Shown: positions 2,131 through 17,632, counted from the stretch's first letter. The stretch is 64,000 bases of DNA from Candidatus Poriferihabitaceae bacterium (GCA_965204925.1 OZ242021.1:2222454-2286453); one strand, 5' to 3'. Translations and numbers: made by a program. The notes: generated by a model from the sequence alone, not told the origin.

Positions 2131-3603
2131 TTATCCAGCCTTGCGGGCAGCCGCCAGTGATTCTCCGAGGCGAACCGTCTCTGCAATCAGCGTATCGAAA
2201 TCCCGCTGGCGGCTGCGGTGATTGGCGATGGCGACGCGAATACAATAATTGCCGCGCAGAGTCGTAGCGGAAGGCGCGGCGATGCCCTGTTCCTGCAGCT
2301 CGATGAGAAGGTCCCGGTTCAGGACATTCAGGCGCTCAACGTCCATTCCACCCGGATTGAAACGATAACAGACGATGTCCAGGGAAACCGGAGCAACCAG
2401 CTCAAGCCTCTGATCCTTGTTTATCCGTTGTTCCAGATAACGGGCCTGATCCAGATTACGTGAAATCATACGCCCGAGTTTTCTGGCGCCATGTTCTTTT
2501 ATCGTCATCCATATTTTCAATGCGCGGAAGGAGCGGCTCAGCTCGACCCCGTATTCGGAAGGCCAATTGCGGCCGGAGGCAATGCCACGGGTAAATTGTT
2601 GCAGGTATTCCGGAATCAGTGAGAAGGCGCCCTTGTGCGCAGCGGCATCCTTGACCAGTACACAGCCGGCCTCGAACGGAACATGCATCCATTTGTGCAG
2701 GTCCAGGGCAACCGAGTGCGCCCGTTCGATTCCTGCCAATAGCGGCCGGGCCTGATCCGACAGCATGGCGATAGCGCCGATAGCTCCATCGACATGAAAC
2801 CAGATGTTATGGCTCTCGCAAATGTCCGCAATGGCGGGCAGATCATCAACCGCGCCCGTGTTGACAGTCCCCGATGTGGCGATAATGCAGATCGGTTTGA
2901 GACCGTTGGCAATATCACGGTCAAGTCTTGATTGCAGGTCATCAAGATTCATGCTGAAGTCGTCGTTGACGTGAACGCGCCTGAAACAGTCGCTGCCAAG
3001 ACCCAGAAGCTCGGCCGCTTTCTGGTTGCAGCTGTGCACCTCGGTAGAGGCATAGACGGCCAGTTTGCGGTCAACCGATTGCAGTCCTTCCTTTCTCACA
3101 TCAAATCCGGCTACGTCATTGCGTGCGGCAGCCAGTCCCACCAGATTGGCCATTGAGCCGCCGCTGACCAGCAGGCCGCTGGATTCTTGCGGGAACCTCA
3201 TTATTGTTTTCATCCAGTCCAGTACCTGGTTCTCAACGAGGATCGCGGCATGATGCCCACCGCCCAGATTGGAATTCATCGTGGCTGCCATCAGTTCGGC
3301 GAACGCTCCCATTACGGTGCCGTTCCCCATATACCATGCCCAGAATCGTGGATGGATATTGCCCAGGGGCCAGGGCAGTATATTGTTTCTGAATTCCTCA
3401 TATACGGAGACCGGGTCGCCAGGCTCCATGGGGCAGGGTTGCCTGAACGCGGCTGTGACTTCTTCAGGCATGCGCTGCCAGACCGGGCGTTCAGGCGCGG
3501 ATTGCAGCCAGTCGATCGCATCATCAATTATTCTGTGGCCGAGTTCACGCATCTCGTCCCAGTTTTCGGGGTCAAGTGTTTCAAAAACGTCAGGGGCGGT
3601 CAT
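2131..3603 (-). CDS. pyridoxal-phosphate-dependent (group II) amino-acid decarboxylase
   Basis: PLP-lysine motif (…SVALDLHKWMHVPFEAGCVLV…) and group II decarboxylase-like sequence throughout. The start is placed at the ATG at 3603 (MTAPDVFETLDPENW…) because the upstream co-oriented MFS gene ends at 3629. Confidence 0.85.
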   Translation of the reverse strand: MTAPDVFETLDPENWDEMRELGHRIIDDAIDWLQSAPERPVWQRMPEEVTAAFRQPCPMEPGDPVSVYEEFRNNILPWPLGNIHPRFWAWYMGNGTVMGAFAELMAATMNSNLGGGHHAAILVENQVLDWMKTIMRFPQESSGLLVSGGSMANLVGLAAARNDVAGFDVRKEGLQSVDRKLAVYASTEVHSCNQKAAELLGLGSDCFRRVHVNDDFSMNLDDLQSRLDRDIANGLKPICIIATSGTVNTGAVDDLPAIADICESHNIWFHVDGAIGAIAMLSDQARPLLAGIERAHSVALDLHKWMHVPFEAGCVLVKDAAAHKGAFSLIPEYLQQFTRGIASGRNWPSEYGVELSRSFRALKIWMTIKEHGARKLGRMISRNLDQARYLEQRINKDQRLELVAPVSLDIVCYRFNPGGMDVERLNVLNRDLLIELQEQGIAAPSATTLRGNYCIRVAIANHRSRQRDFDTLIAETVRLGESLAAARKAG

Positions 3604-3628
3604 GTCTGTCGCCAATACTGGTATCGGG

Positions 3629-4927
3629 TTATTCGGTGTGAGCGTCCAGCGTCCGGGTTGCCTGAACCGCCTTGTCGACATCCAGGCGCCAGAGCATACA
3701 GCCGCCTCCGACAAAGAGGATGACCAGAACCAGAATGCTGTCGCGGGCGCTGGCGCCTGCGATCATGATCGGTACGAATGCCATCAGGAACGGGCCGAAG
3801 ATACTGGCAAACTTGCCTACCATATTATAGAAACCGAAAAATTCGGCAGTCTTCGCTTGTGGAATCAAACGGGCAAACAGGGAGCGGCTCAGACTTTGCA
3901 CTCCACCCTGAACGAGGCCGATGGTAACGGCCAGCCAGTAGAAATCGGCGGCGGAATCAAGCCATTTCCAGGCATAGATTACGACTGCGGTATAGACCAG
4001 CAAACCGATCAGTATGCCGCGTTTGGGGCCGATTTTCTTGCCCAGCCAGCCAAAGAACAGGGCGGCAGGGAATGATACGAACTGGGTCAGCAACAGCGCC
4101 GTAATAAGGCTTTCCGGCGGCAGGCTCAGGATGCGGTCGGCGAAAAATACCGCTGTCTTGAAGATTGTGCCAACGCCGTCAATGTACAGCCAGTAGCTTA
4201 CCAGGAACAACAGGACATATTTCAGTTTGCGGATTTCCCGAAAGGTTGCGGCCAGGCGCCAAAAGCCTTGTCCGATCGTTTGTGTTTTCGGGGCGGCAGC
4301 CGGTTTTTCCGGTTCTTTGACAATGTATAGTAAAGGCAGCGTAAATACTGTCCACCATATGCCGACAGAGACAAAGGACAGGGACAGGGCGCTGGCCTGA
4401 TCGGGGATGCCGAACCATTCGAAGCGGGTAACCATCATTACGTTGATCAGGAAAAGCAGCCCGCCTCCGATATAGCCGAGGGCGTAGCCGTAGCCGGATA
4501 CGACATCCATATCCTCTTCGGACGATACTTCGACAATCAGCGCATCATAGAAGATCATGGAGCCGGAGAATCCGATCTGCCCGAGGCCGTAGACGATCAG
4601 CGCTATCCACCACATTCCTGCCCCTACCCATGCCAGTCCAACGCACATCAGGATTCCGAGCAGGGAGAAGCATGCCAGGAATTTTTTGCGGGAACCGCCG
4701 GAATCGGCGATAGCCCCCAGAACAGGCGCTGCGATGGCAACCAGGGCGCTGCTTATGGCCAGGGTCATGTTGAACCAGAACTGGGAATCGTTGACGCTCA
4801 GGCCGGATGACAATGCGCTATAGAAAACCGGGAAGAATCCGGCAATGACCGTAGTCGCGAATGCCGAGTTGCCCCAGTCATACAATGCCCAGGCGACCAC
4901 CTTTTTGTCAGTCAGGATTGTGCGCAT
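3629..4927 (-). CDS. MFS transporter, UMF1/Atg22-like family
   Basis: 432 aa with about 12 TM segments and the N-terminal signature MRTILTDKKVVAWALYDWGNSAFATTVIAGFFPVFY typical of Atg22/UMF1 MFS proteins. It lies 25 bp upstream of the decarboxylase, so the two probably form an operon. Confidence 0.8.
   Translation of the reverse strand: MRTILTDKKVVAWALYDWGNSAFATTVIAGFFPVFYSALSSGLSVNDSQFWFNMTLAISSALVAIAAPVLGAIADSGGSRKKFLACFSLLGILMCVGLAWVGAGMWWIALIVYGLGQIGFSGSMIFYDALIVEVSSEEDMDVVSGYGYALGYIGGGLLFLINVMMVTRFEWFGIPDQASALSLSFVSVGIWWTVFTLPLLYIVKEPEKPAAAPKTQTIGQGFWRLAATFREIRKLKYVLLFLVSYWLYIDGVGTIFKTAVFFADRILSLPPESLITALLLTQFVSFPAALFFGWLGKKIGPKRGILIGLLVYTAVVIYAWKWLDSAADFYWLAVTIGLVQGGVQSLSRSLFARLIPQAKTAEFFGFYNMVGKFASIFGPFLMAFVPIMIAGASARDSILVLVILFVGGGCMLWRLDVDKAVQATRTLDAHTE
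4269..4317. repeat. Source copy of a 49-bp patch (MFS interior) that recurs at 6855-6903
   Basis: tgtccgatcgtttgtgttttcggggcggcagccggttttt[c/t]cggttctt is present at both loci, matching at 48 of 49 positions. Confidence 0.9.
4815..4927. repeat. Source copy of a 113-bp direct repeat (first 37 codons of the MFS gene) that recurs at 9778-9890
   Basis: Manual alignment of gcgctatagaaaaccgggaagaatccggcaatgacc…gtcaggattgtgcgcat shows one mismatch (gcgaCcacc vs gcgaTtacc region: C/T). Homology stops exactly at the MFS ATG. Confidence 0.95.
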
Positions 4928-5078
4928 GAAGTGATCCGTGATGGTCTGCAGCGGGGTTCAGCCAATGTGGGTTTCCATGGGCGGAGCATATATTGCGTAA
5001 AGCGATGTTTCAAGGAGGGAACCCCGCACTGAAAATCAGACGAGGACACGACCCACGCAGCCATGTAAAAGAGCCACT

Positions 5079-6699
5079 CTAAAGCGACCGGTAATAATCA
5101 CGAATTTTTCTGGCCATAAGACGCCGGCGCTCTTTCAGGAAGCCGTTGTAGTTATCGACGTCCATCTCTTCCATGTCCTCGGGTATGCAGTGAGCCTGAA
5201 GGTTCGCGCGTAGCTCGTCAGCGTCGGTGATGCCGCCGTATCCGGATTCTCCATTCGCGCATTGGCGCCACAACGCGCTGAAATACGAAGCGGGCGGAGC
5301 ATCGCCGATGGCGATGTTGATCTCGCCTTGCATCACCACATAGTTCGCGATCTGGTTGTAGGCGCCGCGAGCCAGACCGCGCTTCTTCAGATAATTCCGT
5401 GGAAAGACGTGGTGGACCTGGGAGGCGCCTTCCAGCAGAGTCCGAACGGTATGGCCGTTCGACAGGAATCCCTTGTCGTTTCCCTTGACCTGACTCGCCA
5501 GGAACACTTTGAAATAAGAGCTGCTCGCCACTGAGGTGTCCATCTGTTGCGGTAGGCCAGTGTCCCAGAACACATCCGACAGCCTGGCCTGCTCCACCGC
5601 TTCAAGGCAGTCCTGTGCGTTCTGTTCCGTGATGTTGCGGATATCCACACCGAATGCGGTCTCCGGCGAACCCGTGTATCGGCCGGTGAGAACGGACATG
5701 ATGAACCAGCGACGCACCAGTGTCTCGATGAGCGTCGGATGCGTGTCCCGCGCGCGTAACGTCAGATAGACGATATAGGCGAAGTTCACGGCATTCTGCG
5801 ACCGGATCATTGATGCGTTCACGAACCCTGCCGAGCGCAGGATCATCACGAAGCGCTTGAAATTCGTCTCGTTCATGAAACGCAGGAGCGCCGCATCAAG
5901 CCTGCTGAACGCATCCTCGGCGATCACCTCCTCAAACTCGCTGTCGCCAGCGAGTTCGGAATACGCTTCCGGCGCCACGGCGAGGTGGCAGAAATAATCA
6001 ATGCACTTTCGCAGTTGGTGGCCGTTGTACCTTTCGTTCGCCGCCATCTTCGACATGGCGAAGTCTGCCGCATTCAGCGTAACGCCCTGTGAGTTGATAC
6101 GGACGAATATCTCCGAGACGGTTTCCACATTCAGATCGGCATTGAGTTCGATGAGGCCGAGTAAATTGTTGCGGATGCCCCGCAGCCATTCAATCCGTTC
6201 GTAGATCTGGTCTTTGTTTGATTCCGGGTTGCTCTCGCAATAGGCGTCGACCACTCGAAGCAGTCTGGTGTCGGGGGTGAACAGGGTTGCGATGTCGGCA
6301 AGCCATGCCCTGTCGCGCTGGATGGCGGGATTGGCCACCTCGAACCGTTCCTCACCGGGATGGAACGCGACCGTGATACGCACCTTCCGGTAGCTCTTGT
6401 TGACGACCTGCTGCCCGAGCATGGCTGCCATGAGCGCCGTGACACGCTGCTGGCCATCAAGTAAGAGTGCGCTTGCCCGCCGATTTGCTTCCGTCCTTCA
6501 ACCGGACGGAGGGATTACGCCAGGCGATGAGATACCCGACCGGATAGCCGAAATACAGCGAGTCGATGAAATCGCGCGCTTTCGCTGCGTTCCAGACAAA
6601 CGGTCGTTGAATCTCGGGGATTGCAATCTCGTCGGACTTGATCCAGGTGAGCAGCGTCTGGACCGGATGCTGATTGACCGAGTAGCGTTGGATGGTCAT
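5079..6699 (-). pseudogene. GmrSD-like type IV restriction protein (DUF262 N-terminal + DUF1524/His-Me-finger C-terminal), interrupted by a frameshift near 6465-6500
   Basis: The 80-aa ORF 6457-6699 carries the DUF262 start ([34 protein letters not shown]) and stops at 6457. The DGQQR motif (…[17 protein letters not shown]…) continues in a different frame into the 450-aa ORF 5079-6431. That ORF ends with an HNH-like block (HHVFPRNYLKK…NYVVMQGEINIAIGD). Confidence 0.75.
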
Positions 6700-6836
6700 G
6701 GCGGCTCCTGATATGCGATGTCCCGACAGCTTCGAGTTCGTTCTCTTTGTTTTGAAGGGCGCTGCAGGGTTTTTTATTTTTTGATGTCGAAATTCGATAC
6801 TATGGGTGACTGTTTCGAACTACCACAGCAGATCGG

Positions 6837-6845
6837 ATTATAACA
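6837..6845 (-). promoter_or_regulatory. Extended -10 element (TGTTATAAT on the minus strand) upstream of the DUF262 gene
   Basis: The reverse complement of attataaca at 6837-6845 is TGtTATAAT. It lies about 135 nt upstream of the ATG at 6699, which is preceded by the SD caggagcc. Confidence 0.35.
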
Positions 6846-6854
6846 TTTCGGGAG

Positions 6855-6903
6855 TGTCCGATCGTTTGTGTTTTCGGGGCGGCAGCCGGTTTTTTCGGTT
6901 CTT
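6855..6903. repeat. 49-bp patch copied from the MFS gene interior (4269-4317), sitting at the seam between the DUF262 module and the R-M module
   Basis: 48 of 49 positions are identical to 4269-4317, in the same orientation. Confidence 0.9.
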
Positions 6904-7057
6904 CAGGAAATCACGTGGCCAATCGCCGATCTGGCAACCCGCCGGAGGGGTGGCCTTGTCCGCATACTCCTGACGCCTGCGTTTGCATCCGAAAATCCCG
7001 CCGAATCCACCAAGGGATGTCCTTGGCGGGAATTGCTGGGATGGGTTCACCGCAATT

Positions 7058-7085
7058 TTGACATGTGTCCCGTCTAATTTATAAT
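7058..7085 (+). promoter_or_regulatory. Perfect consensus sigma70-type promoter TTGACA-N16-TATAAT pointing toward the methyltransferase
   Basis: ttgaca at 7058-7063, a 16-nt spacer, and tataat at 7080-7085, read directly from the sequence. Confidence 0.5.
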
Positions 7086-7400
7086 CCTCCGACCCGATGC
7101 ATAGTTGATGCTTCTAACATTTGGCCGCCAAGCGATGCTCTCTCAGCCGAAAGTGCTTTCTTTACTAATCCTTAGTCCCGACGAGCTTCAGCTTTCCGTC
7201 TCCTCTAACAGATCAATTACCGTTATGCCCCAAGGCACAATTATGCTAGATTGTCCGCGTTGGTCAAAGTGTTTACTGAAATCGGACGACGCCCCCGACG
7301 TGGCCCAAAACGAATTTCAATTGCTCCAGCGCGCGCCGATGCCTGCTGCACAGCGGTCATCTGGATGCTGTAGCGCGGATTCCCTCTTGCGTGGCGCGGC

Positions 7401-8435
7401 TTGTTTCAAGAGCTACCGCTCTGGCGGTTCACACTCTTTCTTCGGAGCATAGCGCCCTTGACCAGTTCCTCGACACCGAATACCCCTATAGACCAACTGT
7501 TTGGTCGTCAAAGTTCTCCAACGGAGCCAACACAAATTACGATATCCGCAGGCGCCTGCCACTCTCGGAAAAACGCAACAATAATTCACGGTGATTGCCT
7601 GGATGTTCTGCCGGCTCTCCCGAGTAGTTCAGTGGACCTCATTTTTGCAGATCCTCCGTATAACATTGGAAAACAATTCAGGAATTTCAAAGACTCATGG
7701 TCCTCTATCCACGAATACATGGATTGGTGCTACAGGTGGCTTGAACATTGTATCCGAATCTTAAAGCCAACAGGTAGTATGTATGTGATGATGAGTACTC
7801 AGTCGATGCCTTATCTTGATATTTGGCTGAGAGATCGTGTCAATATTTTGTCGAGAATTGTTTGGCACTATGATAGTTCAGGTGTACAAGCGAAATCCTG
7901 CTTTGGTTCCCTTTACGAACCGATACTCCATTGTTCAAAAGATAACAAGCATTACACATTCAATGCCAACGACATCGCTGTCGAAGCAAGAACGGGGGCA
8001 GTTCGGAATCTGATCGACTACCGCAAGGAAGTCCCCACTCCATACAATACAAGGAAGGTTCCTGGTAATACCTGGTATATTCCACGTGTTCGATATCGGA
8101 TGCCAGAGTACGAAGAGCATCCAACGCAAAAGCCTGAAACTCTATTGGAGAGGATAATCAAGGCTAGTTCAAATACTGGGGATATTGTGCTTGATCCATT
8201 CGGTGGTACATTTACAACATGTGCAGTGTCCCAACGTCTAGATAGAACATCAATTGGAATCGAACTTCAGTTAGATTTTGTCAAGATTGGCATTCGCCGA
8301 CTTGGAATTGCTGATCGTTTTAGGGGTGAGCGTCTCCACTCGCCGACTAAATCATACCGTCGCAAGAACAGAAAGAACGTGGATGGCCCTGAGGAAAAGA
8401 GAGTACAAAAGGAGCTTTTCGATGGGACCATTTGA
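7401..8435 (+). CDS. DNA methyltransferase, beta-class N6-adenine/N4-cytosine family (N6_N4_Mtase), DPPY type
   Basis: Motif IV (DLIFADPPYNIG) precedes motif I (DIVLDPFGGTFTTC), which is the beta-class order. The catalytic region starts around 7570 (NATIIHGDCLDVLP). The annotated start is a TTG and the true start is uncertain. Confidence 0.88.
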   Translation: MFQELPLWRFTLFLRSIAPLTSSSTPNTPIDQLFGRQSSPTEPTQITISAGACHSRKNATIIHGDCLDVLPALPSSSVDLIFADPPYNIGKQFRNFKDSWSSIHEYMDWCYRWLEHCIRILKPTGSMYVMMSTQSMPYLDIWLRDRVNILSRIVWHYDSSGVQAKSCFGSLYEPILHCSKDNKHYTFNANDIAVEARTGAVRNLIDYRKEVPTPYNTRKVPGNTWYIPRVRYRMPEYEEHPTQKPETLLERIIKASSNTGDIVLDPFGGTFTTCAVSQRLDRTSIGIELQLDFVKIGIRRLGIADRFRGERLHSPTKSYRRKNRKNVDGPEEKRVQKELFDGTI

Positions 8436-9561
8436 AATCACTCGTCACGACTTCACCCAAACTATTCTGGAGACCCTGGAAGAACATTTCGGCGAAAGCG
8501 CTTCCGACATCTTTTCGAGTAGTCCAATACTCGGGTATCTCAACACAAAAACAAAATCTGCACATCGTGGGTCGAAAGCACGAGGATCGTTCGCCAATCA
8601 CTACGCATTGTATGTTGTCGTGGAAGATTATATTCAAAAAGGATTTCTGGAAAGGACTGCCGGTACGGCTTATGCTCAATATGAAGGCGCTCGATTTTCC
8701 GATCTGTTTCGGCGACAACGAGAATTGCCATTCGGCGCCAAGTTGCAAAATCACGCGCTTAATTCACGTCTCAATGATGAATTTCGAAAATTCTACCCGA
8801 CAGTGGGGAAGTTACCCATTGTTCGTAATTTGGAAACGCAACGCTATTGGGTGCAAGAGGATCTTCTCTTATTGACGATTCGTGATAGTACGGGTAAAGA
8901 TTACACTTACAATATTTCGCAAGCAATCATTGATATCATTGATAAATACGTCCAAACCAAGAGGGCAGCGTTCCAGAAGTTTATTGACACCTGCCGACAA
9001 TTAGCAGAATCAGGAAGCGAGGTTTCCCAGAAGGCTATCAATTTTGTTATAGAGCAGCTTGCGCCTGATGTGGACGCGCGAGTTTTTGAAATCGTGAGCT
9101 ATGCTATTCTGAAGGCGAAATACCGACAAGATAACATTTGGATAGGGGAAACGCGAGAGGACGTTGCGGAGGAGGTTCTGGTTCTGTATAAGACAGGACG
9201 AACAAATGCCAATGATGGAGGTATCGATTTTGTCATGAGGCCGCTGGGTCGATTTTTTCAAGTAACTGAAACCATAGACGCAAACAAGTACTTCTTGGAT
9301 ATTGATAAGATACAAAAGTTTCCAATTACGTTCGTCGTTAAATCTACGCAAAGCGTGGAACAGATAAGAGGGGAAATTCGAGAAAAGGCTGTACAGAAAT
9401 ATAAGATTGGGGCAGTCGTCGAAGCGTACATGGATGCTGTGGAAGAGATTATCAATGTTGAGTGCTTGGTTAATGTCTTCAACGATATCGTCGAATCAGG
9501 AGAATTGGGAAGCGTTATGGAAGAAATTATCTTGCAGAGTAAGGTGGAATTCAATTACTAG
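8422..9561 (+). CDS. Putative restriction endonuclease partner of the methyltransferase
   Basis: The ATG at 8422 is preceded by aaaaggag and overlaps the MTase 3' end by 14 nt, suggesting translational coupling. An Mrr/PD-(D/E)XK-like block is present (…TGRTNANDGGIDFVMRPLGRFFQVTETID…). I did not recognise a named family. Confidence 0.5.
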   Translation: MGPFEITRHDFTQTILETLEEHFGESASDIFSSSPILGYLNTKTKSAHRGSKARGSFANHYALYVVVEDYIQKGFLERTAGTAYAQYEGARFSDLFRRQRELPFGAKLQNHALNSRLNDEFRKFYPTVGKLPIVRNLETQRYWVQEDLLLLTIRDSTGKDYTYNISQAIIDIIDKYVQTKRAAFQKFIDTCRQLAESGSEVSQKAINFVIEQLAPDVDARVFEIVSYAILKAKYRQDNIWIGETREDVAEEVLVLYKTGRTNANDGGIDFVMRPLGRFFQVTETIDANKYFLDIDKIQKFPITFVVKSTQSVEQIRGEIREKAVQKYKIGAVVEAYMDAVEEIINVECLVNVFNDIVESGELGSVMEEIILQSKVEFNY

Positions 9562-9617
9562 ATAGTGTCGCCACAAGAAAGGGCCAGTGTATGGTATGAT
9601 CGACGGATGGGAATTCT

Positions 9618-9778
9618 TTTCAACCCAGCGAAGTGAAGCGCAAGAGAACCCACGGGTTTCGTGAACGTATGCGTAACCCGCGGGGGGCGCGCGATTATCA
9701 ATGCACGCCGAGCCAGGGGGCGCGTCCGTTTAAGCGCTTGACGAAATTGAGTCATGTCGCCGCTCACGGCTGGCCTCG
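9618..9778 (+). pseudogene. Truncated, frameshifted duplicate of rpmH (from codon ~5) plus the first ~8 codons of rnpA
   Basis: Aligns to 12577-12736 with one extra A (gcgtaacccg vs gcgtacccg) and one substitution. It lacks the rpmH start codon and promoter. Confidence 0.9.
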
Positions 9779-9890
9779 CGCTATAGAAAACCGGGAAGAA
9801 TCCGGCAATGACCGTAGTCGCGAATGCCGAGTTGCCCCAGTCATACAATGCCCAGGCGACTACCTTTTTGTCAGTCAGGATTGTGCGCAT
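9778..9890 (-). pseudogene. Duplicate of the first 113 bp of the MFS gene (MRTILTDKKVVAWALYDWGNSAFATTVIAGFFPVFYSA…), fused to the rpmH'/rnpA' fragment
   Basis: Matches 4815-4927 at 112 of 113 positions. The junction with the rnpA' fragment is at 9778 with about 1 nt of shared sequence. Its ATG lies 4 nt after the stop of the AAA-ATPase gene. Confidence 0.9.
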
Positions 9891-9894
9891 CCAG

Positions 9895-11460
9895 TTACCC
9901 CGTCCGCATGGCCGCAAGGTTGCGCTTGTCGCGGTCAAATACAAGGGCAAGCAGATGAATGCGTCGGTTCCCCGTGCGGTACTTGTCGGCATAGCCCTTA
10001 TCTCTTATCTGCACAAGCGCCTGTTCTGCCTTTGCTTCCACCTGCGCTTCATCCGCTACTTTCAATTCCAGTACAAATACCTGATTATCCCGTACCAATA
10101 CCATGTCGGAACGTCCCCGCCAGGTGGAGTCTTCGGGATGAACCTTGACACCCAGTGTGATAAAACAGGCATAGAGCAGGGAAGCGTAATAACCTTCGGA
10201 ATATCCTCCATCCTTGCGGCGTTGCCACTGATACGGAATACCGGCAAAGAACGCCTGCAACTCCCGCTCAAATCCCGCAAAGTCGCTGGCATCCAGCAAG
10301 GCAAGCCAAGTCTTGACGTACCGTGAGGTTTGCACCAAATCCCCGGTAACCGCCTCCAGCAACTGATTGTTCAGGCTCACCTTCACTTCATGGTTGGGAT
10401 AGTCCAGTGTGAAGGAGATTCCGGCAGGACCAGTCTCTTCATCGACAATGGTCAGATAGCCGCACTGGAATAACAGGGCGTTGAGATTGACTTTGCCGAC
10501 CTCGAATGTGGACAGGTCGCTGCGGCGCATGACCAGATTCTCAAGGTCCAGTGTATTGACCTCTCCGCTTGCCATGCGGTCATAGAGGAATGAAGGTGTG
10601 CCGGTCTCATACCACCAGGGGATGAACTCTCGTTTCTGGAGATACAGCAGGATGTCGAACGGGTTATAGACTTTCTCCTGCCCGCGCCAGTGATAGCCGT
10701 TGTACCAGTGGCGGATGTTCTCGCGCTCTTCTTCCGGTATATCTTCCAGTTCCGCGGCGAATACCGTTTCCAGGTCATTCTGGGTATAACCGCACAGCGT
10801 GGCATACTCAGGGTCCAGGCTGATGTCGTTGAGATTGTTCAGCTTCGAGAACAGACTGACCTTGGAGTACATGCTGATACCGGCAACAAAGACGAAGCGA
10901 ATGTAGCGAGCGCAGCCCTTGATCATGCCATAGAAACCGCGCAGAAAGTCGCGGTTCTCTACAGCCAGTTCCTCATTTTCCAGCACATCGAGGATCGGCT
11001 TGTCGTATTCGTCTACGAGAACGACAACCTGCTGCCCGCTCTTGTAATAAAGACGCTCTATGAGGCTGCGAAGGCGGGTCGGACCGGTATCCGCTTCTGT
11101 GTCCGGCTCAAGACCCTGGCGGTACTCTATATTCCTTAACTGCAGCATGACATCCTTTTCGAGCTCCCCTGACTCATTGTATTTGCCGTCAAAACTCAGA
11201 CGTACGACCGGATGGCTGATACTCCAGTCCCAATGTTCATGAATATGAAGTCCGCGGAACAACTCCTCGCTGCCGGCAAACAGTTCATGCAGCGTATCTA
11301 TGAGCAGGCTCTTGCCAAAACGGCGCGGGCGCGACAGGAAGTAATATCCGGGCCTTCTTGTCAAATTCCAGATATGGGGGGTTTTATCCACATAGTAAAA
11401 GTTCCACTTGCGAATGTTGCCAAACGAAGCATCGCCGATCGGTAGTTCCAGTCTGTCCAT
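9895..11460 (-). CDS. AAA-ATPase-like / PD-(D/E)XK nuclease family protein (AAA-ATPase_like + PDDEXK_9, former DUF1703 architecture)
   Basis: The N-terminus (FGNIRKWNFYYVDKTPHIWNL…GYYFLSRPRRFGKSLLIDTLHELF) is characteristic of this family. The C-terminus has a D…ExK block (GRSDMVLVRDNQVFVLELKV). Confidence 0.8.
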   Translation of the reverse strand: MDRLELPIGDASFGNIRKWNFYYVDKTPHIWNLTRRPGYYFLSRPRRFGKSLLIDTLHELFAGSEELFRGLHIHEHWDWSISHPVVRLSFDGKYNESGELEKDVMLQLRNIEYRQGLEPDTEADTGPTRLRSLIERLYYKSGQQVVVLVDEYDKPILDVLENEELAVENRDFLRGFYGMIKGCARYIRFVFVAGISMYSKVSLFSKLNNLNDISLDPEYATLCGYTQNDLETVFAAELEDIPEEERENIRHWYNGYHWRGQEKVYNPFDILLYLQKREFIPWWYETGTPSFLYDRMASGEVNTLDLENLVMRRSDLSTFEVGKVNLNALLFQCGYLTIVDEETGPAGISFTLDYPNHEVKVSLNNQLLEAVTGDLVQTSRYVKTWLALLDASDFAGFERELQAFFAGIPYQWQRRKDGGYSEGYYASLLYACFITLGVKVHPEDSTWRGRSDMVLVRDNQVFVLELKVADEAQVEAKAEQALVQIRDKGYADKYRTGNRRIHLLALVFDRDKRNLAAMRTG

Positions 11461-11814
11461 TGTCGTTTTTTGTCAGGAGAATATCTGCCGATCATAGCAC
11501 AACGCAGACCTCGCATTTCCTGTTACCGATACCCTTCCTTATACATTTACAGAACTGCACCGAAAGCGGCCAGGCGCCCCGGATTTTTAGTAGAAAAAAT
11601 TGTTGGGTTACCGGTTCTCGTGCTACTATTCGTCCCGCACACTTTGGAAGCGCCCCCTTCGGGTCGCCCGTGAAATGAAACAGCCTCTGCGCGACCTCGG
11701 CCCCTGGAACCAAGGTCCGGTGAATACGCGGGAATCCTCAGCGTTCCGCTTCCGATTGTGTGCAACCGGCCCGGCGCCAGATTGCCGGGATTGTCTCACC
11801 TATCGGAAGCATCT

Positions 11815-12205
11815 ATGCTAAAGAACTCACTTGTCTTTGTCGGCGCTCTGGCATCCTTAATCCTTTCCGGCTGTGCAACGATTACCCAGGGCACGGATGA
11901 CAATATCCGTCATGCGCATAGGGACAGAAAGCTCCGGGCTGACGATTGAACAGCCGTTGCGGGCCGAGTCGGGCAGTGGAACATTTCGCGTCGAAAACGG
12001 CTGGATAGAGAACGGCACAAGGCTTTATGACCAGTACCGTATTCCATTGCGCCCCGATGCGCGGGAACTGCGTCTTGCCTTGCGTCATGAACGGCAGGTT
12101 GCCGGCGGCGGTATCGCTGTCGAGGCCAGCCATGCCATGAATGCCGGCTATGTGTCCGGAGAATCGGAGACCGGCATCGGCGTGGCGTACCGCATGACAT
12201 GGTAG
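11815..12205 (+). pseudogene. Possible lipoprotein gene interrupted by a frameshift near 11900
   Basis: MLKNSLVFVGALASLILSGC has a signal peptide and lipobox, and this frame stops at 11949. A 110-aa ORF continues in another frame to 12205. The reading is compatible with a 1-nt indel but is unproven. Confidence 0.3.
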
Positions 12206-12489
12206 CGCGGTATCGCATTTCCTGCTTTGCGCTGGCGTCCGTGGTCGCGTTCGGCGCCGCCTGCCGGGGGGCGCATGAAACACATAGTGTGTCCGTTCCG
12301 GCAGATGCCCTTGTCGAAGATGGCGTTGTCTACACTCCTGTGGCCCGCGGCCCGCAGGGATGTGTACTTTACAACTTCGAGATTCCCGGCGGCTATGCTC
12401 CCGCCGCCCTTGTGTACCGGAGCGTTGAAGGCGAATTCAGCTATGATCGCCCGGACCGATGTGTGCAGAGTCCGGAGACCCGGCCATAG
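12199..12489 (+). CDS. Hypothetical small secreted or lipoprotein
   Basis: 96-aa ORF with an N-terminal hydrophobic signal-like segment (CFALASVVAFGAAC). No recognised family. Confidence 0.3.
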   Translation: MVARYRISCFALASVVAFGAACRGAHETHSVSVPADALVEDGVVYTPVARGPQGCVLYNFEIPGGYAPAALVYRSVEGEFSYDRPDRCVQSPETRP

Positions 12490-12502
12490 CCGTTGTTTTC
12501 TC

Positions 12503-12531
12503 TTGAATTTCGCGGGCAAACCGGGTAAATT
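12503..12531 (+). promoter_or_regulatory. Candidate rpmH promoter (TTGAAT-N17-TAAATT)
   Basis: ttgaat at 12503-12508 and taaatt at 12526-12531, about 35 nt upstream of the rpmH ATG. Confidence 0.35.
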
Positions 12532-12564
12532 GTGCGACCCTTCTGATCGATACCGAACAAAGAT

Positions 12565-12699
12565 ATGAAACGTACATTTCAACCCAGCGAAGTGAAGCGC
12601 AAGAGAACCCACGGGTTTCGTGAACGTATGCGTACCCGCGGGGGGCGCGCGATTATCAATGCACGCCGAGCCAGGGGGCGCGTCCGTTTAAGCGCTTGA
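12565..12699 (+). CDS. rpmH: 50S ribosomal protein L34
   Basis: My own translation gives [44 protein letters not shown] (44 aa), a classic L34 sequence. It is below the ORF-track size cutoff. Confidence 0.95.
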
Positions 12700-12711
12700 C
12701 GAAATTGAGTC

Positions 12712-13101
12712 ATGTCGCCGCTCGCGGCTGGCCTCGGACGACATCAAAAATTGTTGAACGGCGCTCAGTTCAGGGCGGTTTTCAAGCGGAGGATTTCAGT
12801 TCGCGGCCGGTATTTCGTCCTGCATGTCGCCAGCAATGCGCTTTTGCACGCCAGGTTGGGGCTGTCCGTTTCCAGACGGGTCAGCAAAAAAGCGATTGAA
12901 CGCAACCGTATAAAGAGACAGATCAGGGAATCGTTCCGGACCAATCAGTGGATGCTGTCGTTCGCAGATCGTTCGACCGATTGCGTGGTTGTGTCCAGGG
13001 CAGGCGGCGTTGAACAACCCAATCGGATACTGAAGAAAGACCTGGACAGTTTGTGGACCAGAGCGAGGCGAAAATGCGAGAGTTGCCAGGGAAAATCGTG
13101 A
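12712..13101 (+). CDS. rnpA: Ribonuclease P protein component
   Basis: 129 aa immediately after rpmH, with an RnpA-like basic sequence (…FVLHVASN…LGLSVSRRVSKKAIERNRIKRQIRESFR…). Confidence 0.9.
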   Translation: MSPLAAGLGRHQKLLNGAQFRAVFKRRISVRGRYFVLHVASNALLHARLGLSVSRRVSKKAIERNRIKRQIRESFRTNQWMLSFADRSTDCVVVSRAGGVEQPNRILKKDLDSLWTRARRKCESCQGKS

Positions 13102-13362: not shown

Positions 13363-15066
13363 ATGCCGTTTCAAAAAATGATGCTGTTCGCGGCGCTTGG
13401 CCTGGTTCTGGTCATGATCTGGCAGTCCTGGGTGGAATTCCAGCGAGAAAGGTTGGCGGGAGACGCTCCGGCTACAGAGCGGGGCGAGGGCGCGGGCCGC
13501 GTTGACCGTATCCATTTGAATGAGGATGTTCCGGAAGCCCCCGAGATAACGACCCGTATCAATAATGCCGGAGTGGATGTTCTGGATGAAGGGGGCGGCG
13601 CAGTTGCACAGACGGAGGTTAACGATGGTCGTATTATTCATGTCACGACAGACCTCGTCAAGGCGCAAATCGATACGCGGGGCGGGGATCTGGTGCGGGT
13701 GGAATTGCTCAGGCATCCGGTCAGTGTGGATACGCCCGATATTCCGTTTGTGCTGATGCACAGGAATAATCCGAACCTGTTTGTCGCGCAAAGCGGGCTG
13801 ATTGGACAAGACCGCGAGTATCCCAATCATAATGTCGAGTTTTCCGCGCCGCAGTTCGAGTACCGGTTGGGAGATGACCGCAATCTGGATGTGGTATTGA
13901 ACTGGAGCGCCGCGGACGGGGTGGATTATGCCAGGATATATCGTTTCCAGAGGGACAGCTATCGCATAGGGATTGACTTTCGTATTACCAACAACAGTGA
14001 TCGGCCATGGACGGGCTTCGTCTATGGGCAGTTGAAGCAAACCGAAATCGAGCAGGAAGGGTCACTGGGCTTCCTGGGACGAATCCCGAGTTACAACGGG
14101 GCGGCGATTTATACGGAAGAGGACAAGTACGAAAAAATTGATTATGGCGAGATTCAGGACGGCCCGTTGAACAAGACCACGGCGGATGGATGGGTGGCGA
14201 TGTTGCAGCATTATTTTGTAGCTGCCTGGCTGCCGATGGAGTCCGATTATTACCAGTTGTACTCGGGCGTAAACAACAAGACGCCGAAGCCCGAGTATCG
14301 CATTGGCTACAAGACAACCCGGCCGTTGGTGGTGCCGCCCGGTCAGACCGGGGTAATTCCGACCGCGCTGTTTGTCGGGCCGAAAGAGCAGGCGCGTCTT
14401 GACCGGCAGAACAAGACCGGATTGAAGCTGACCGTCGACTACGGCTGGTTAACCCCGCTCGCCAATCCCCTGTTCTGGTTGCTGAGCAAGATATACGGGG
14501 TAACCCTGAACTGGGGATGGGCTATTATCCTGCTGACCGTTCTGGTCAAGGCGGTTTTCTATCCTCTGTCAGCGGCCAGTTACAAGTCGATGGCGAAGAT
14601 GAAAAAACTTCAGCCGAGAATGGTGACATTGAAGGAGCGGTACAGCGGGGACAAGCAAAAGTTTCAGCAGGAGATGATGAAACTCTACAAGCAGGAAAAA
14701 GTGAATCCGGCGGGCGGCTGTTTGCCCATACTCGTGCAGATCCCGGTATTCATCGCGTTGTACTGGACGCTGCTGGAGAGTGTAGAGTTGCGCCAGGCCA
14801 GTTTCATGTGGTGGCTGAACGACCTTTCGCTGCCCGATCCGTACTTTGTGTTACCGATCATCATGGGGCTTTCCATGCTGGCCCAACACTTCCTCAATCC
14901 TGCCCCGGTCGACCCGATCCAGAAAAAGATCATGCTGGCGCTGCCTTTCGTATTTACTGTATTCTTCCTGTGGTTCCCGGCCGGCCTCGTTCTTTACTGG
15001 GTGGTCAATAACCTGCTTTCCATTGCACAGCAATACTATATTACGCGCAAGTACCAGAGTGTCTGA
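13363..15066 (+). CDS. yidC: Membrane protein insertase YidC
   Basis: 567 aa with a large periplasmic domain and the conserved C-terminal TM core (…WGWAIILLTVLVKAVFYPLSAASYKSMAKMKKLQPRM…). Confidence 0.95.
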   Translation: MPFQKMMLFAALGLVLVMIWQSWVEFQRERLAGDAPATERGEGAGRVDRIHLNEDVPEAPEITTRINNAGVDVLDEGGGAVAQTEVNDGRIIHVTTDLVKAQIDTRGGDLVRVELLRHPVSVDTPDIPFVLMHRNNPNLFVAQSGLIGQDREYPNHNVEFSAPQFEYRLGDDRNLDVVLNWSAADGVDYARIYRFQRDSYRIGIDFRITNNSDRPWTGFVYGQLKQTEIEQEGSLGFLGRIPSYNGAAIYTEEDKYEKIDYGEIQDGPLNKTTADGWVAMLQHYFVAAWLPMESDYYQLYSGVNNKTPKPEYRIGYKTTRPLVVPPGQTGVIPTALFVGPKEQARLDRQNKTGLKLTVDYGWLTPLANPLFWLLSKIYGVTLNWGWAIILLTVLVKAVFYPLSAASYKSMAKMKKLQPRMVTLKERYSGDKQKFQQEMMKLYKQEKVNPAGGCLPILVQIPVFIALYWTLLESVELRQASFMWWLNDLSLPDPYFVLPIIMGLSMLAQHFLNPAPVDPIQKKIMLALPFVFTVFFLWFPAGLVLYWVVNNLLSIAQQYYITRKYQSV

Positions 15067-15106: not shown

Positions 15107-16453
15107 TTGCCTGTTTCTGCAAGCGCCGATACCATTGTCGCTGTTGCCACTCCGCCCGGTCGCGGAGGCATCAGTATTGTTCGTCTGTCGGGGCCGGATG
15201 TTCCCCGTATCGCCAGGCGGCTGGTCGGTATGTGTCCCGCTCCCCGTCATGCCTGTCATACCGATTTCCTGGATCGCGATGGTCTGGCTATTGACAATGG
15301 AATTGTCTTGTATTTTCCGGCCCCGTACAGCTTCACCGGGGAATCGACGCTCGAACTCCAGGCCCATGGCAGTCCTGTGGTGATGCAAATGCTGTTGCAG
15401 AGTTGTCTCGCGTCGGGCGCCAGACTGGCCCAGCCCGGCGAATTCTGCAAACGCGCCTTCCTGAACGGGCGGCTGGATTTGGCCCAGGCGGAGGCGGTTG
15501 CGGATTTGATCGACAGCAGTACACAAGCTGCGGCCAGGTCCGCGCTCAATTCACTGAAGGGCGGCTTTTCGAGGCGGATTCATGAACTGGTGGAGGAGGT
15601 GACCCGCCTGCGGGTTTTTGTCGAAGCGGCCATTGATTTTCCAGACGAGGAGACAGACTTTCTCGAAGACGGCAACGTTGTTGGGCAGCTTGAGCGTTTG
15701 TCGTCGTTGTTCGCATCATTGAAAAGCTCCGGCAAACGGGGAATGCTGTTGCGGGAGGGACTGAAAGTGGTGTTGACCGGTTTGCCGAACGCCGGAAAAT
15801 CAAGCCTGCTCAACTATTTGTGCAATGAACAGCGGGCGATTGTCAGCGCCATTCCCGGCACCACACGGGACGTGCTGGAGCAATTTGTCGATATCGACGG
15901 ACTGCCTGTTGAAATCGTCGATACAGCCGGAATCAGGCCGGCCACCAACGAAATCGAAGCGGAAGGAGTGCGCCGGGCGAAACAACAGCAGAGCCGCGCC
16001 GGGCTCGTGCTTTTAGTGGTTGATGATACGGAAACTTCCGATGCCGGGGCGAATTGCCTCTTGAATGATCCGGATACAGCGGCTCCGGTCTTGCTGGTAC
16101 GAAACAAAATCGATCTGACCGGCCGCCCCGCGCGAGCGATTGAAAACGAGGTATGGGTGTCCGCGCTCACCGGTCAGGGGATTGACATTCTGAAGGAAAA
16201 AATCAGGGACATTGCCGGCTTCCGTGAGGCTGACGATAGTCATTTCCTCGCCAGGGAAAGACATCTTGAGGCGCTGGAGCGGGCCGAGAGGTTCCTGCTC
16301 CATGGACTGGAGCAGCAGAAAACATTCCGCGCCGGTGAGTTGCTTGCTGAAGATTTGCATTGTTGTCAGCGCGCATTGTCCGCGATCACGGGCGAAATCA
16401 GCAGTGATGATCTGCTTGGAATGATCTTCAGTACATTTTGTATCGGCAAGTGA
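15107..16453 (+). CDS. mnmE: tRNA modification GTPase MnmE
   Basis: DTIVAVATPPGRGGISIVRLSG N-terminus, G-domain motifs (GLPNAGKSSLLN, DTAG) and the C-terminal FCIGK. There is no in-frame ATG after the yidC stop, so the start is placed at the TTG at 15107. A GTG at 15059 overlapping yidC is the alternative. Confidence 0.9.
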   Translation: MPVSASADTIVAVATPPGRGGISIVRLSGPDVPRIARRLVGMCPAPRHACHTDFLDRDGLAIDNGIVLYFPAPYSFTGESTLELQAHGSPVVMQMLLQSCLASGARLAQPGEFCKRAFLNGRLDLAQAEAVADLIDSSTQAAARSALNSLKGGFSRRIHELVEEVTRLRVFVEAAIDFPDEETDFLEDGNVVGQLERLSSLFASLKSSGKRGMLLREGLKVVLTGLPNAGKSSLLNYLCNEQRAIVSAIPGTTRDVLEQFVDIDGLPVEIVDTAGIRPATNEIEAEGVRRAKQQQSRAGLVLLVVDDTETSDAGANCLLNDPDTAAPVLLVRNKIDLTGRPARAIENEVWVSALTGQGIDILKEKIRDIAGFREADDSHFLARERHLEALERAERFLLHGLEQQKTFRAGELLAEDLHCCQRALSAITGEISSDDLLGMIFSTFCIGK

Positions 16454-16602: not shown

Positions 16603-17619
16603 ATGATTGAAGCGACCCCACATAACTACACCCGAAGTATTTTGTTGCAAATACTGATTGTTCTGGTAATTTTGACCCTTGCGGCGGTTTGGCAGAGAGA
16701 TATTATCACGCAGATTTATTTCCACAATCAGGTCAATGCAGTAGGCTGGCTGGTCAACGGCGGTATCTTGTTGCTGTTTGTTTGTGGTCTGTTTGAGCTG
16801 ATTAAACGCTTCCTGGAATACCGCACCCAGGAGCAGGCGATCAACCGCTTGCAGTCCAACATTGGCGCAGACCGTGAGCCATTGCTCGGGATTCCCCGAA
16901 AGCTGATGATCTCCGAACGCTTTCTGACCCTCCAGTCACTCAGCCATCGACGTGAGGCGGTCAATCAGAACGCTCTGGCCGCTACTTTGCTGGCTTCGGA
17001 GTCCAGCCGCAACAGCTTTTTGAAATTTGTCCATAATGTACTGATTCTGACCGGAGTATTCGGAACAATTGTCTCCCTGTCGATTTCGTTGCTGGGTGCC
17101 TCCGATATTTTGCAGAGCAGCGGACAGATCAATATTCTTCCGGGCGGCGACCAGGAAAGCGCGAAAGGACTGGGCACGATGATTTTCGGTATGTCGACCG
17201 CGTTGTCGACGACGTTGACAGCAATCCTTGCTTACCTGTTTTTTGGTTATTTCTATATCAAGCTGACCGATACCCAGACTTTCCTGATCAGTAAGGTCGA
17301 AGAAGTGACGGCGACCACTCTGATGCCCTGGCTCCAGAGCAGCCAAAAAGTGGACGCGCTGGATTTTTCCGATATTCAGTCTGCCGGCGAATTGGTTGAG
17401 AGGCTTGGGCAAGCGCAGGAGCGGATAACGCAGAAACTGACGGAATTACTGGAATCCCGGGCGCTGGAAGATAAGGGCAACCAGGATATGCTGACCCTGA
17501 TTCGTGAAATGATTGAAGTGCAGATGTCCACGACTAACCAGAATAATGAAAATCTGAATGAGGTTGTAACCCTGTTGCAACGAGGATTCCGCTTGCGCCC
17601 CGGTGGTCTGGAACCCTAG
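16603..17619 (+). CDS. MotA/TolQ/ExbB-like proton-channel family membrane protein with a ~110-aa C-terminal helical tail
   Basis: 4 predicted TM segments. The TM3-TM4 region resembles the MotA_ExbB core (…VLILTGVFGTIVSLSISL… and …GTMIFGMSTALSTTLTAILAYLFFGYFY…, compare TolQ GLFGTVWGI / AEALIATAIGLFAAIPA). An AT-rich upstream region has two TATAAT hexamers (16512-16517, 16524-16529). Confidence 0.6.
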   Translation: MIEATPHNYTRSILLQILIVLVILTLAAVWQRDIITQIYFHNQVNAVGWLVNGGILLLFVCGLFELIKRFLEYRTQEQAINRLQSNIGADREPLLGIPRKLMISERFLTLQSLSHRREAVNQNALAATLLASESSRNSFLKFVHNVLILTGVFGTIVSLSISLLGASDILQSSGQINILPGGDQESAKGLGTMIFGMSTALSTTLTAILAYLFFGYFYIKLTDTQTFLISKVEEVTATTLMPWLQSSQKVDALDFSDIQSAGELVERLGQAQERITQKLTELLESRALEDKGNQDMLTLIREMIEVQMSTTNQNNENLNEVVTLLQRGFRLRPGGLEP

Positions 17620-17632
17620 CGCGGACTGTATA

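Follow-up and report, generated by a model that had tools for sequence, protein, structure and literature searches.

Insertion of restriction-modification (R-M) genes with a long target duplication was reportedly described by Nobusato et al. in 2000. As characterised by Furuta, Abe and Kobayashi (2010; PMC2853133), such insertions contain both the R and the M gene, measure less than 20 kb, carry no mobile-element genes and are bounded by a direct repeat of more than 30 bp that is single-copy in a genome with the empty site; Kobayashi's group has also proposed an R-M 'life cycle' of invasion, amplification and release via long repeats (PMC2853133). Homology-facilitated illegitimate recombination, for its part, accretes modules and leaves orphaned gene pieces behind, as in the effector-immunity arrays of the Vibrio cholerae type VI secretion system (T6SS) and in orphan arrays of Rhs and contact-dependent inhibition (CDI) genes (PMC5361080). 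Here, we analysed a stretch of 64,000 nucleotides (the window) from Candidatus Poriferihabitaceae bacterium (GCA_965204925.1 OZ242021.1:2222454-2286453), in which a type II R-M pair lies between a transporter gene of the major facilitator superfamily (MFS) and the core genes rpmH and rnpA. Comparison with related genomes shows that positions 5017-12498 form an accessory defence-type island of about 7.5 kb, composed of three unrelated foreign modules; the closest described phenomenon is the R-M 'insertion with long target duplication' (PMC2853133). Copied fragments of the flanking core genes, which we call patches, lie at the seams of the R-M module. We suggest, with about even confidence, that the island came first and that copies of the locus bearing it later underwent illegitimate recombination of the duplication type with one another, the patches being scars that remained once redundant parts had been lost.

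All coordinates are positions in the window, and repeats were sought by comparing the whole window with itself (self-BLAST). The MFS gene is the source of two patches: its 5' end (4815-4927) recurs at 9778-9890 (113 bp, one mismatch, E = 1e-52) and a piece of its interior (4269-4317) at 6855-6903 (49 bp, one mismatch, E = 5e-17). The third patch, of 160 bp, comes from rpmH-rnpA, of which 12577-12736 recur at 9618-9778 (161 alignment columns, one mismatch and a 1-nt insertion, E = 5e-77). Since the only other repeat in the 64-kb window is a tandem array at 18000-19248, these three pairs are far beyond chance. They had been pointed out in a sequence-only reading of the same DNA; self-alignment bears them out at the same positions, and Pfam agrees with the identities given there to the MFS, rpmH, rnpA, DUF262, R-M and AAA-ATPase genes. 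With their source genes in this genome the patches share 98-99% identity, but with the orthologues of relatives only 82-91%, and they therefore derive from this lineage.

All three patches keep the native orientation of their sources. The 49-bp patch forms the left seam of the R-M module, and not, as had been proposed, a special seam between two divergently promoted modules. The right seam is formed by the other two patches: at 9778 the rnpA' copy runs straight into the MFS' copy, a single base pair (G) being common to both. The head-to-tail, duplication-type topology that the sequence-only reading had recognised at this position is thus real, with rnpA codon 8, a downstream point, joined to MFS codon 38, an upstream point, in the same orientation. 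Microhomology at the five patch joins amounts to 0-1 bp, and reading the patch ends by eye revealed no restriction-site-like motif. The MFS' copy ends exactly at the ATG; no MFS upstream region is present there, and the stop codon of the AAA-ATPase gene follows 4 nt further on. The rpmH' copy lacks both the rpmH promoter and codons 1-4. When the differences between patches and sources were polarised against relatives, three of the four turned out to be derived in the patches, namely a +1 A frameshift in rpmH', a G>A change (Ala>Thr) in rnpA' and one substitution in the 49-bp patch; the fourth, which is synonymous, arose in the functional MFS gene. The patches thus appear to be local copies of core genes that are dead and decay in place, and their divergence of about 1% suggests that they are not very young. 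A chimeric open reading frame (ORF) of 110 codons runs across the join on the - strand (9561-9890). Its first 37 residues are those of the MFS N-terminus, with the first transmembrane helix, and the other 73 come from antisense reading of rnpA'/rpmH'; as it begins 4 nt past the stop codon of the AAA gene, the two could share a transcript.

The state of the locus before the island can be read from relatives. The closest genomes are sponge-associated metagenome-assembled genomes of Arenicellales / Ca. Poriferihabitaceae, whose MFS proteins are 82-88% identical at the amino acid level, the nearest one found being 88% identical; a metagenome scan with MFS returned no relative above 66% identity. 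We compared the five relatives that share the downstream synteny (L002, L161, L162, L168 and L169). In all five, MFS and rpmH stand next to each other in divergent orientation, with about 130-165 bp between them, and none of the island genes occurs at this locus in any of these genomes: the GmrSD/DUF262 gene is absent, as are the AAA gene and the lipoprotein-like ORFs. The 113-bp MFS segment is single-copy in each of L002, L161, L162 and L168. The ancestral spacer is still present in our window as two halves, one beside MFS and one beside rpmH, each in one copy, and in the ancestral spacer these halves abut within about 7-8 bp. Because MFS and rpmH are adjacent in the five relatives and the spacer is split here, the intervening 7.5 kb are an insert. 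Of the two unduplicated states that the sequence-only reading had predicted, the one with MFS adjoining rpmH is found in five relatives. A recurrent integration hotspot in the MFS-rpmH spacer was considered and is not supported, all five syntenic relatives being empty.

The insert sits in a gap of about 15 bp between two divergent -35 boxes. A putative MFS promoter consists of TTGAAA (5013-5008) and TATGCT (4990-4985) separated by 17 nt, and a putative rpmH promoter, read from the sequence and its conservation, of TTGAAT (12503-12508) and TAAATT (12526-12531), likewise 17 nt apart. Each outer edge of the insert is about 3 bp away from a -35-like hexamer, that of MFS on one side and the conserved one of rpmH on the other.

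Defence genes cluster in the island, as both the type II R-M pair and a frameshifted GmrSD/HEC-05-like gene match PADLOC models. The R-M pair consists of a methyltransferase ORF at 7401-8435 (+; PADLOC MTase_II 5.6e-125, NCBIfam PRK11524 6.5e-133, Pfam N6_N4 methyltransferase) and a restriction endonuclease ORF at 8422-9561 (+; PADLOC REase_II 1.1e-152). Its GC content is 0.43-0.47 compared to about 0.56 for the host. Over 7099/7202-9561 only, the pair is 82-87% identical at the nucleotide level to R-M loci in contigs rich in insertion sequences (IS; L165-L167), where these loci are embedded among transposase genes. The closest homologue is that of L165 (restriction endonuclease 90% identical at the amino acid level; methylase gene at 4449-6014), which lies in an IS-rich mobile context: two 99.8% identical 1.4-kb IS copies (161-1573 and 3054-4466; DDE_Tnp_1) stand in direct orientation immediately upstream of the methylase gene, and further transposase genes follow downstream of the endonuclease gene. 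In the window, the stretch between the 49-bp patch and the R-M module holds a perfect sigma-70 consensus promoter, TTGACA-16-TATAAT, at 7058-7085 (+), which faces the methylase gene and is located just upstream of where the window becomes similar to other R-M loci. Searches for traces of the host flanks in 6904-7098 and 6700-6854, and of the rpmH promoter in 9562-9617, gave scores no better than shuffled controls. The only matches from a plasmid search with 5017-9617 were distant ones (67-72%), to DUF262 genes and to yhdJ-type methylase genes that have no context in common with the window.

The GmrSD gene is split by a frameshift into two ORFs in different frames (5079-6431 and 6457-6699, both -), each carrying Pfam GmrSD_N and matching PADLOC HEC-05 (5.6e-13 and 1.4e-11), and the GC content of this module is similar to that of the host. 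The third module comprises an AAA-ATPase_like + PDDEXK_9 gene (9895-11460, -; Pfam 3.8e-57 and 5.3e-20) and small lipoprotein-like ORFs on the + strand, one at 11758-11949 that continues in another frame as 11873-12205 and one at 12199-12489. Both the GmrSD split (5079-6699, -) and the lipoprotein-like frame change (11758-12205, +) may represent either pseudogenes or homopolymer assembly errors.

The AAA/PDDEXK_9 gene gave no PADLOC match. It has at least 14 paralogues of 62-75% identity on the 2.62-Mb source contig and belongs to a family with dozens of members in related sponge-symbiont genomes, where the genes occur as tandem triplets with a spacing of about 95 bp as well as scattered between core genes (examples are L163 4077-9262 and L164 1-2794 and 6001-7590). 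Since the best paralogue in this genome reaches only 75% identity, compared with about 99% between the patches and their sources, the AAA module was not copied recently within this genome. We also considered the AAA gene as a transposable unit with conserved ends and rejected this for now: similarity between the paralogues stops at the coding sequence, and no stubs of neighbouring genes were seen around the paralogues in L163 and L164. Within the whole region, no ORF of 4.9-12.6 kb has an integrase, transposase or site-specific recombinase domain (Pfam, PADLOC, NCBIfam), and 4.7-12.8 kb contain no tRNA or Rfam RNA and no terminal inverted repeats, only inverted repeats at chance level.

Table 1 Features of the island and its flanks, in window coordinates.
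Feature	Position	Strand	Basis
Pyridoxal phosphate (PLP) decarboxylase gene	2131-3714	-	Pfam
Intact MFS (Atg22/UMF1-like) transporter gene	3629-4927	-	Pfam ATG22 5.9e-65, MFS_1
MFS-proximal half of the ancestral MFS-rpmH spacer	4928-5016	-	Matches the L161, L162 and L168 spacers as far as 5016
Module 1: GmrSD/DUF262-type (HEC-05-like) nuclease gene and upstream region	5017-6854	-	Pfam, PADLOC
49-bp copy of the MFS interior (from 4269-4317)	6855-6903	native orientation	Self-comparison
Stretch matching neither the host flanks nor other R-M loci	6904-7098	+	Similarity comparisons
Module 2: type II R-M pair	7099-9561	+	PADLOC, NCBIfam, GC profile
56-bp spacer from the restriction endonuclease stop codon to the rpmH' patch	9562-9617	.	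No significant match to the rpmH promoter region
Apparently dead copy, rpmH codon 5 to rnpA codon 8	9618-9778	+	Self-comparison, polarity against relatives
Apparently dead copy of the first 37-38 MFS codons, to the ATG	9778-9890	-	Self-comparison, polarity against relatives
Module 3: AAA gene and lipoprotein-like ORFs	9891-12498	AAA -, lipoprotein-like ORFs +	Pfam, ORF calls
rpmH-proximal half of the ancestral spacer	12499-12564	+	Aligns to relatives from 12499 onward
rpmH, functional	12565-12699	+	Pfam Ribosomal_L34 5.2e-22
rnpA, functional	12712-13101	+	Pfam Ribonuclease_P 9.4e-27

But how could pieces of MFS and rpmH-rnpA come to lie inside the very island that separates these genes? The order and number of events that we infer are as follows. 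Foreign DNA would already have accumulated in the gap between the two promoters when two copies of the locus recombined head to tail without homology at the join, so that rnpA codon 8 of the first came to adjoin MFS codon 38 of the second. This second copy may have been carried by a sister chromosome, or it may have been an incoming allele, nearly identical and anchored in MFS by homology, which would amount to homology-facilitated illegitimate recombination. Such an exchange would have placed a segment with the GmrSD and R-M genes and a segment with the AAA gene in tandem. Parts that had thereby become redundant, namely the rpmH promoter with codons 1-4 on the left and the half-spacer with the MFS promoter on the right, would then have been lost, and the 49-bp patch may be the trimmed remnant of an analogous earlier join. 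The position of the insert edges near both -35 boxes is expected from this order of events, because an unduplicated spacer needs both of its promoters and insertion is thus forced into the gap between them. Native orientation of all patches is automatic for unequal exchange, and the finding that the derived changes, a frameshift included, lie mostly in the patches fits dead copies decaying in place.

Several points weigh against this scenario. At least three events are needed, the exchange and two trimming deletions, and more to account for the 49-bp patch; no intermediate was found, the nearest MFS being only 88% identical at the amino acid level. Microhomology of 0-1 bp at the joins is below what is typical for reported cases of homology-facilitated illegitimate recombination. 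That the MFS' copy ends exactly at its start codon, 4 nt from the AAA stop codon, would be a coincidence unless an allele with an AAA-MFS operon once existed. Finally, the presence of patches on both sides of the R-M module is explained more economically by a single event.

Capture of the R-M genes in one complex event is the main rival to the island-first reading. The R-M fragment (6904-9617) would have been captured at a break between older GmrSD and AAA modules, with both junctions filled from the nearby chromosome, which we regard as possible but rather doubtful. As for the filler itself, the left junction would have received 49 bp of MFS and the right one 160 bp of rpmH-rnpA together with 113 bp of MFS, laid down by serial template switching or joined by multi-fragment end joining, to which we likewise give a low probability. 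The attraction of such an event is that it accounts for all three patches at once: each end of the R-M module, the most obviously foreign part of the island, is marked exactly by host patches, all three patches have diverged from their sources to a similar extent (about 1%), and with the spacer halves single-copy, nothing else is duplicated or visibly missing. The joins, though, count against it, since five of them would have been formed with only 0-1 bp of microhomology, and by eye no restriction-site-like motif is shared by the patch ends. Nor does a filler mechanism require that three patches keep their native orientation, an outcome expected by chance in 1 of 8 cases. The 195 bp at 6904-7098 and the 56 bp at 9562-9617 show, moreover, that the R-M fragment already had other flanks. 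We know of no case in which long, multi-piece templated filler has been established for illegitimate integration in bacteria. Serial template switching during one R-M capture could, tentatively, be a bacterial, horizontal-transfer counterpart of the templated-insertion junctions attributed in eukaryotes to fork stalling and template switching or microhomology-mediated break-induced replication (FoSTeS/MMBIR).

The sequence-only reading had placed the duplication first: an ancestral segment of about 440 bp (MFS 5' end, spacer, rpmH and rnpA 5' end) would have been duplicated in tandem, and the redundant copies would later have been filled with foreign genes as a 'safe harbour'. The head-to-tail junction exists, relatives do show the unduplicated MFS-rpmH state and the number of events is similar to that of the island-first reading; still, we consider this order unlikely. 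Each copy would have begun with a full spacer, but each spacer half is present once, and instead of the whole segment between the end points of the duplication only 113 + 160 bp are doubled. Both fills, each independent of the other, would need to have stopped only a few bp from a -35 box that was then redundant; we estimate the joint chance of this at roughly 10^-3 (assuming uniform end points). The AAA and lipoprotein genes, which were thought to be original content kept by the right copy, are not ancestral, being absent from all five relatives, and the AAA gene belongs to a multi-copy accessory family with its at least 14 paralogues. The GmrSD gene is host-like in GC content and already decayed, while the patches differ from their sources by only about 1%. 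With the insert edges about 3 bp from both -35 boxes, the single-copy spacer halves and the non-ancestral AAA and lipoprotein genes, the claim of duplication first and filling later is not supported, and the patches do not prove that a duplicated 'safe harbour', a speculative idea, stood empty before the foreign genes arrived.

Alternatively, the patches might be functional. The rnpA'/MFS' joint would then be the junction of a circular R-M island that is excised via the 113-bp repeats and re-enters related genomes by RecA-dependent exchange at the two conserved core genes, the patches serving as portable homology arms. Direct repeats of 113 and 160 bp do bracket units, patches and relatives' orthologues are still 82-91% identical, and invasion, amplification and release have been put forward as a hypothesis for R-M systems (PMC2853133). 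We nevertheless hold this to be very unlikely, as all five relatives are empty, with no sign of spread, the patches are decaying and one of them is frameshifted, and excision via the 113-bp repeats would leave MFS without a promoter. An assembly artefact in which two strain alleles of the locus were stitched head to tail is highly improbable, for although the source is a metagenome-assembled contig of 2.62 Mb (2,623,764 bp) and the structure resembles two alleles in tandem, the rnpA'/MFS' join shares 1 bp only and offers an overlap or graph assembler no edge without real reads, the patch copies differ from their sources by a frameshift and substitutions, and the patches lack the adjacent promoter halves expected from simple concatenation of alleles.

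Whatever the route, the arrangement has consequences for the genes involved. MFS and rpmH-rnpA would keep their native promoters, and the R-M pair would be served by its own strong putative promoter. RecA-dependent recombination of the 113-bp repeats would be predicted to delete or excise a 4.96-kb GmrSD/R-M unit, from the spacer half through rpmH-rnpA', after which MFS would sit behind the AAA gene without a promoter of its own. Recombination of the 160-bp repeats should be counter-selected, because the rpmH start codon and promoter would be lost. Were the R-M pair active, post-segregational killing would contribute to the stability of the arrangement. The locus records the assembly of a recombinase-less defence island beside the essential genes rpmH-rnpA, with both core promoters undamaged, and where pieces of flanking core genes lie at the seams between modules, they can be taken as scars of recombination. 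Should intermediates be found at strain level, the locus could separate routes by which R-M systems enter a genome without mobile-element machinery, namely unequal exchange, one-sided homology capture and templated filler.

Further observations concern the neighbourhood and the clade. Downstream of rnpA, yidD, yidC and mnmE follow on the + strand. Two other genomes, L001 (5289-9878) and L005 (2999-9733), carry an MFS gene of 83-85% identity whose upstream neighbour is not rpmH, the place being taken by an oligopeptide ATP-binding cassette (ABC) transporter operon or by thrS/pheST; because these upstream neighbours differ, the MFS-decarboxylase block has moved relative to the rpmH region within the clade. 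In L162, an inserted block contains a gene for a Y1 transposase as well as a repeat of 110-138 bp in three copies (12770-12907, 13616-13750 and 15947-16058), and beyond this block lie decayed pieces of the decarboxylase 3' end (16698-16985, 80-84% identity), another scar of core-gene fragments beside accessory DNA in this clade. The tandem array of the window is near-perfect over 18122-19248 (periods of 189 and 294 nt, 98% identity) and lies within an ORF of 782 aa between mnmE and mnmG (17603-19951, +). Since the orthologues of relatives are shorter (541-604 aa) and have internal repeats of their own, this gene expands and contracts by repeat number.

Among known systems, islands moved by tyrosine recombinases, which use tRNA or gene ends and att repeats, resemble the locus in that direct repeats of host-gene fragments mark the boundaries of accessory DNA. 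Here, however, there is neither an integrase nor a tRNA, and what is repeated is the 5' ends of genes and the junction of two genes instead of a restored 3' end; an integrase-type island does not fit. Tandem duplication, or Campbell-type integration of a circle carrying both flanks (as from an F-prime or a specialised transducing element), shares with the locus the joining of rnpA codon 8 to MFS codon 38 in the same orientation and the direct repeats that bracket each unit. It differs in that only 273 bp (113 + 160) are doubled here, with the spacer halves and the island genes single-copy, and in that the two 'copies' hold entirely different genes and each lack half of the spacer. The module accretion known from T6SS and Rhs arrays (PMC5361080) is similar in placing foreign modules beside a conserved anchor gene, with gene fragments between the modules and no dedicated recombinase, whereas the scars at our locus stem from both flanks, are fused to each other and show minimal junction microhomology. 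As to homology-facilitated illegitimate recombination in particular, the illegitimate join has 1 bp of microhomology, and a homologous crossover in MFS would leave no trace.

The R-M insertions with long target duplication (PMC2853133) come closest. The locus agrees with the four points by which they are characterised, having R and M genes (7401-9561) between the 113-bp repeats at 4815-4927 and 9778-9890, only 4.85 kb between these repeats, no integrase or transposase, and a repeat that is 99% identical and single-copy in L002, L161, L162 and L168; the low GC content of the R-M genes is a further likeness. It departs from the simple target-insert-target layout, since native spacer (4928-5016) opens the unit and rpmH-rnpA' (9618-9778) closes it, the AAA gene and not native spacer follows the right repeat, and a third patch lies at the other seam. 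The core-gene scars are largely a known kind of footprint, and the locus extends a documented phenomenon, the R-M insertions with long target duplications, rather than revealing a new system.

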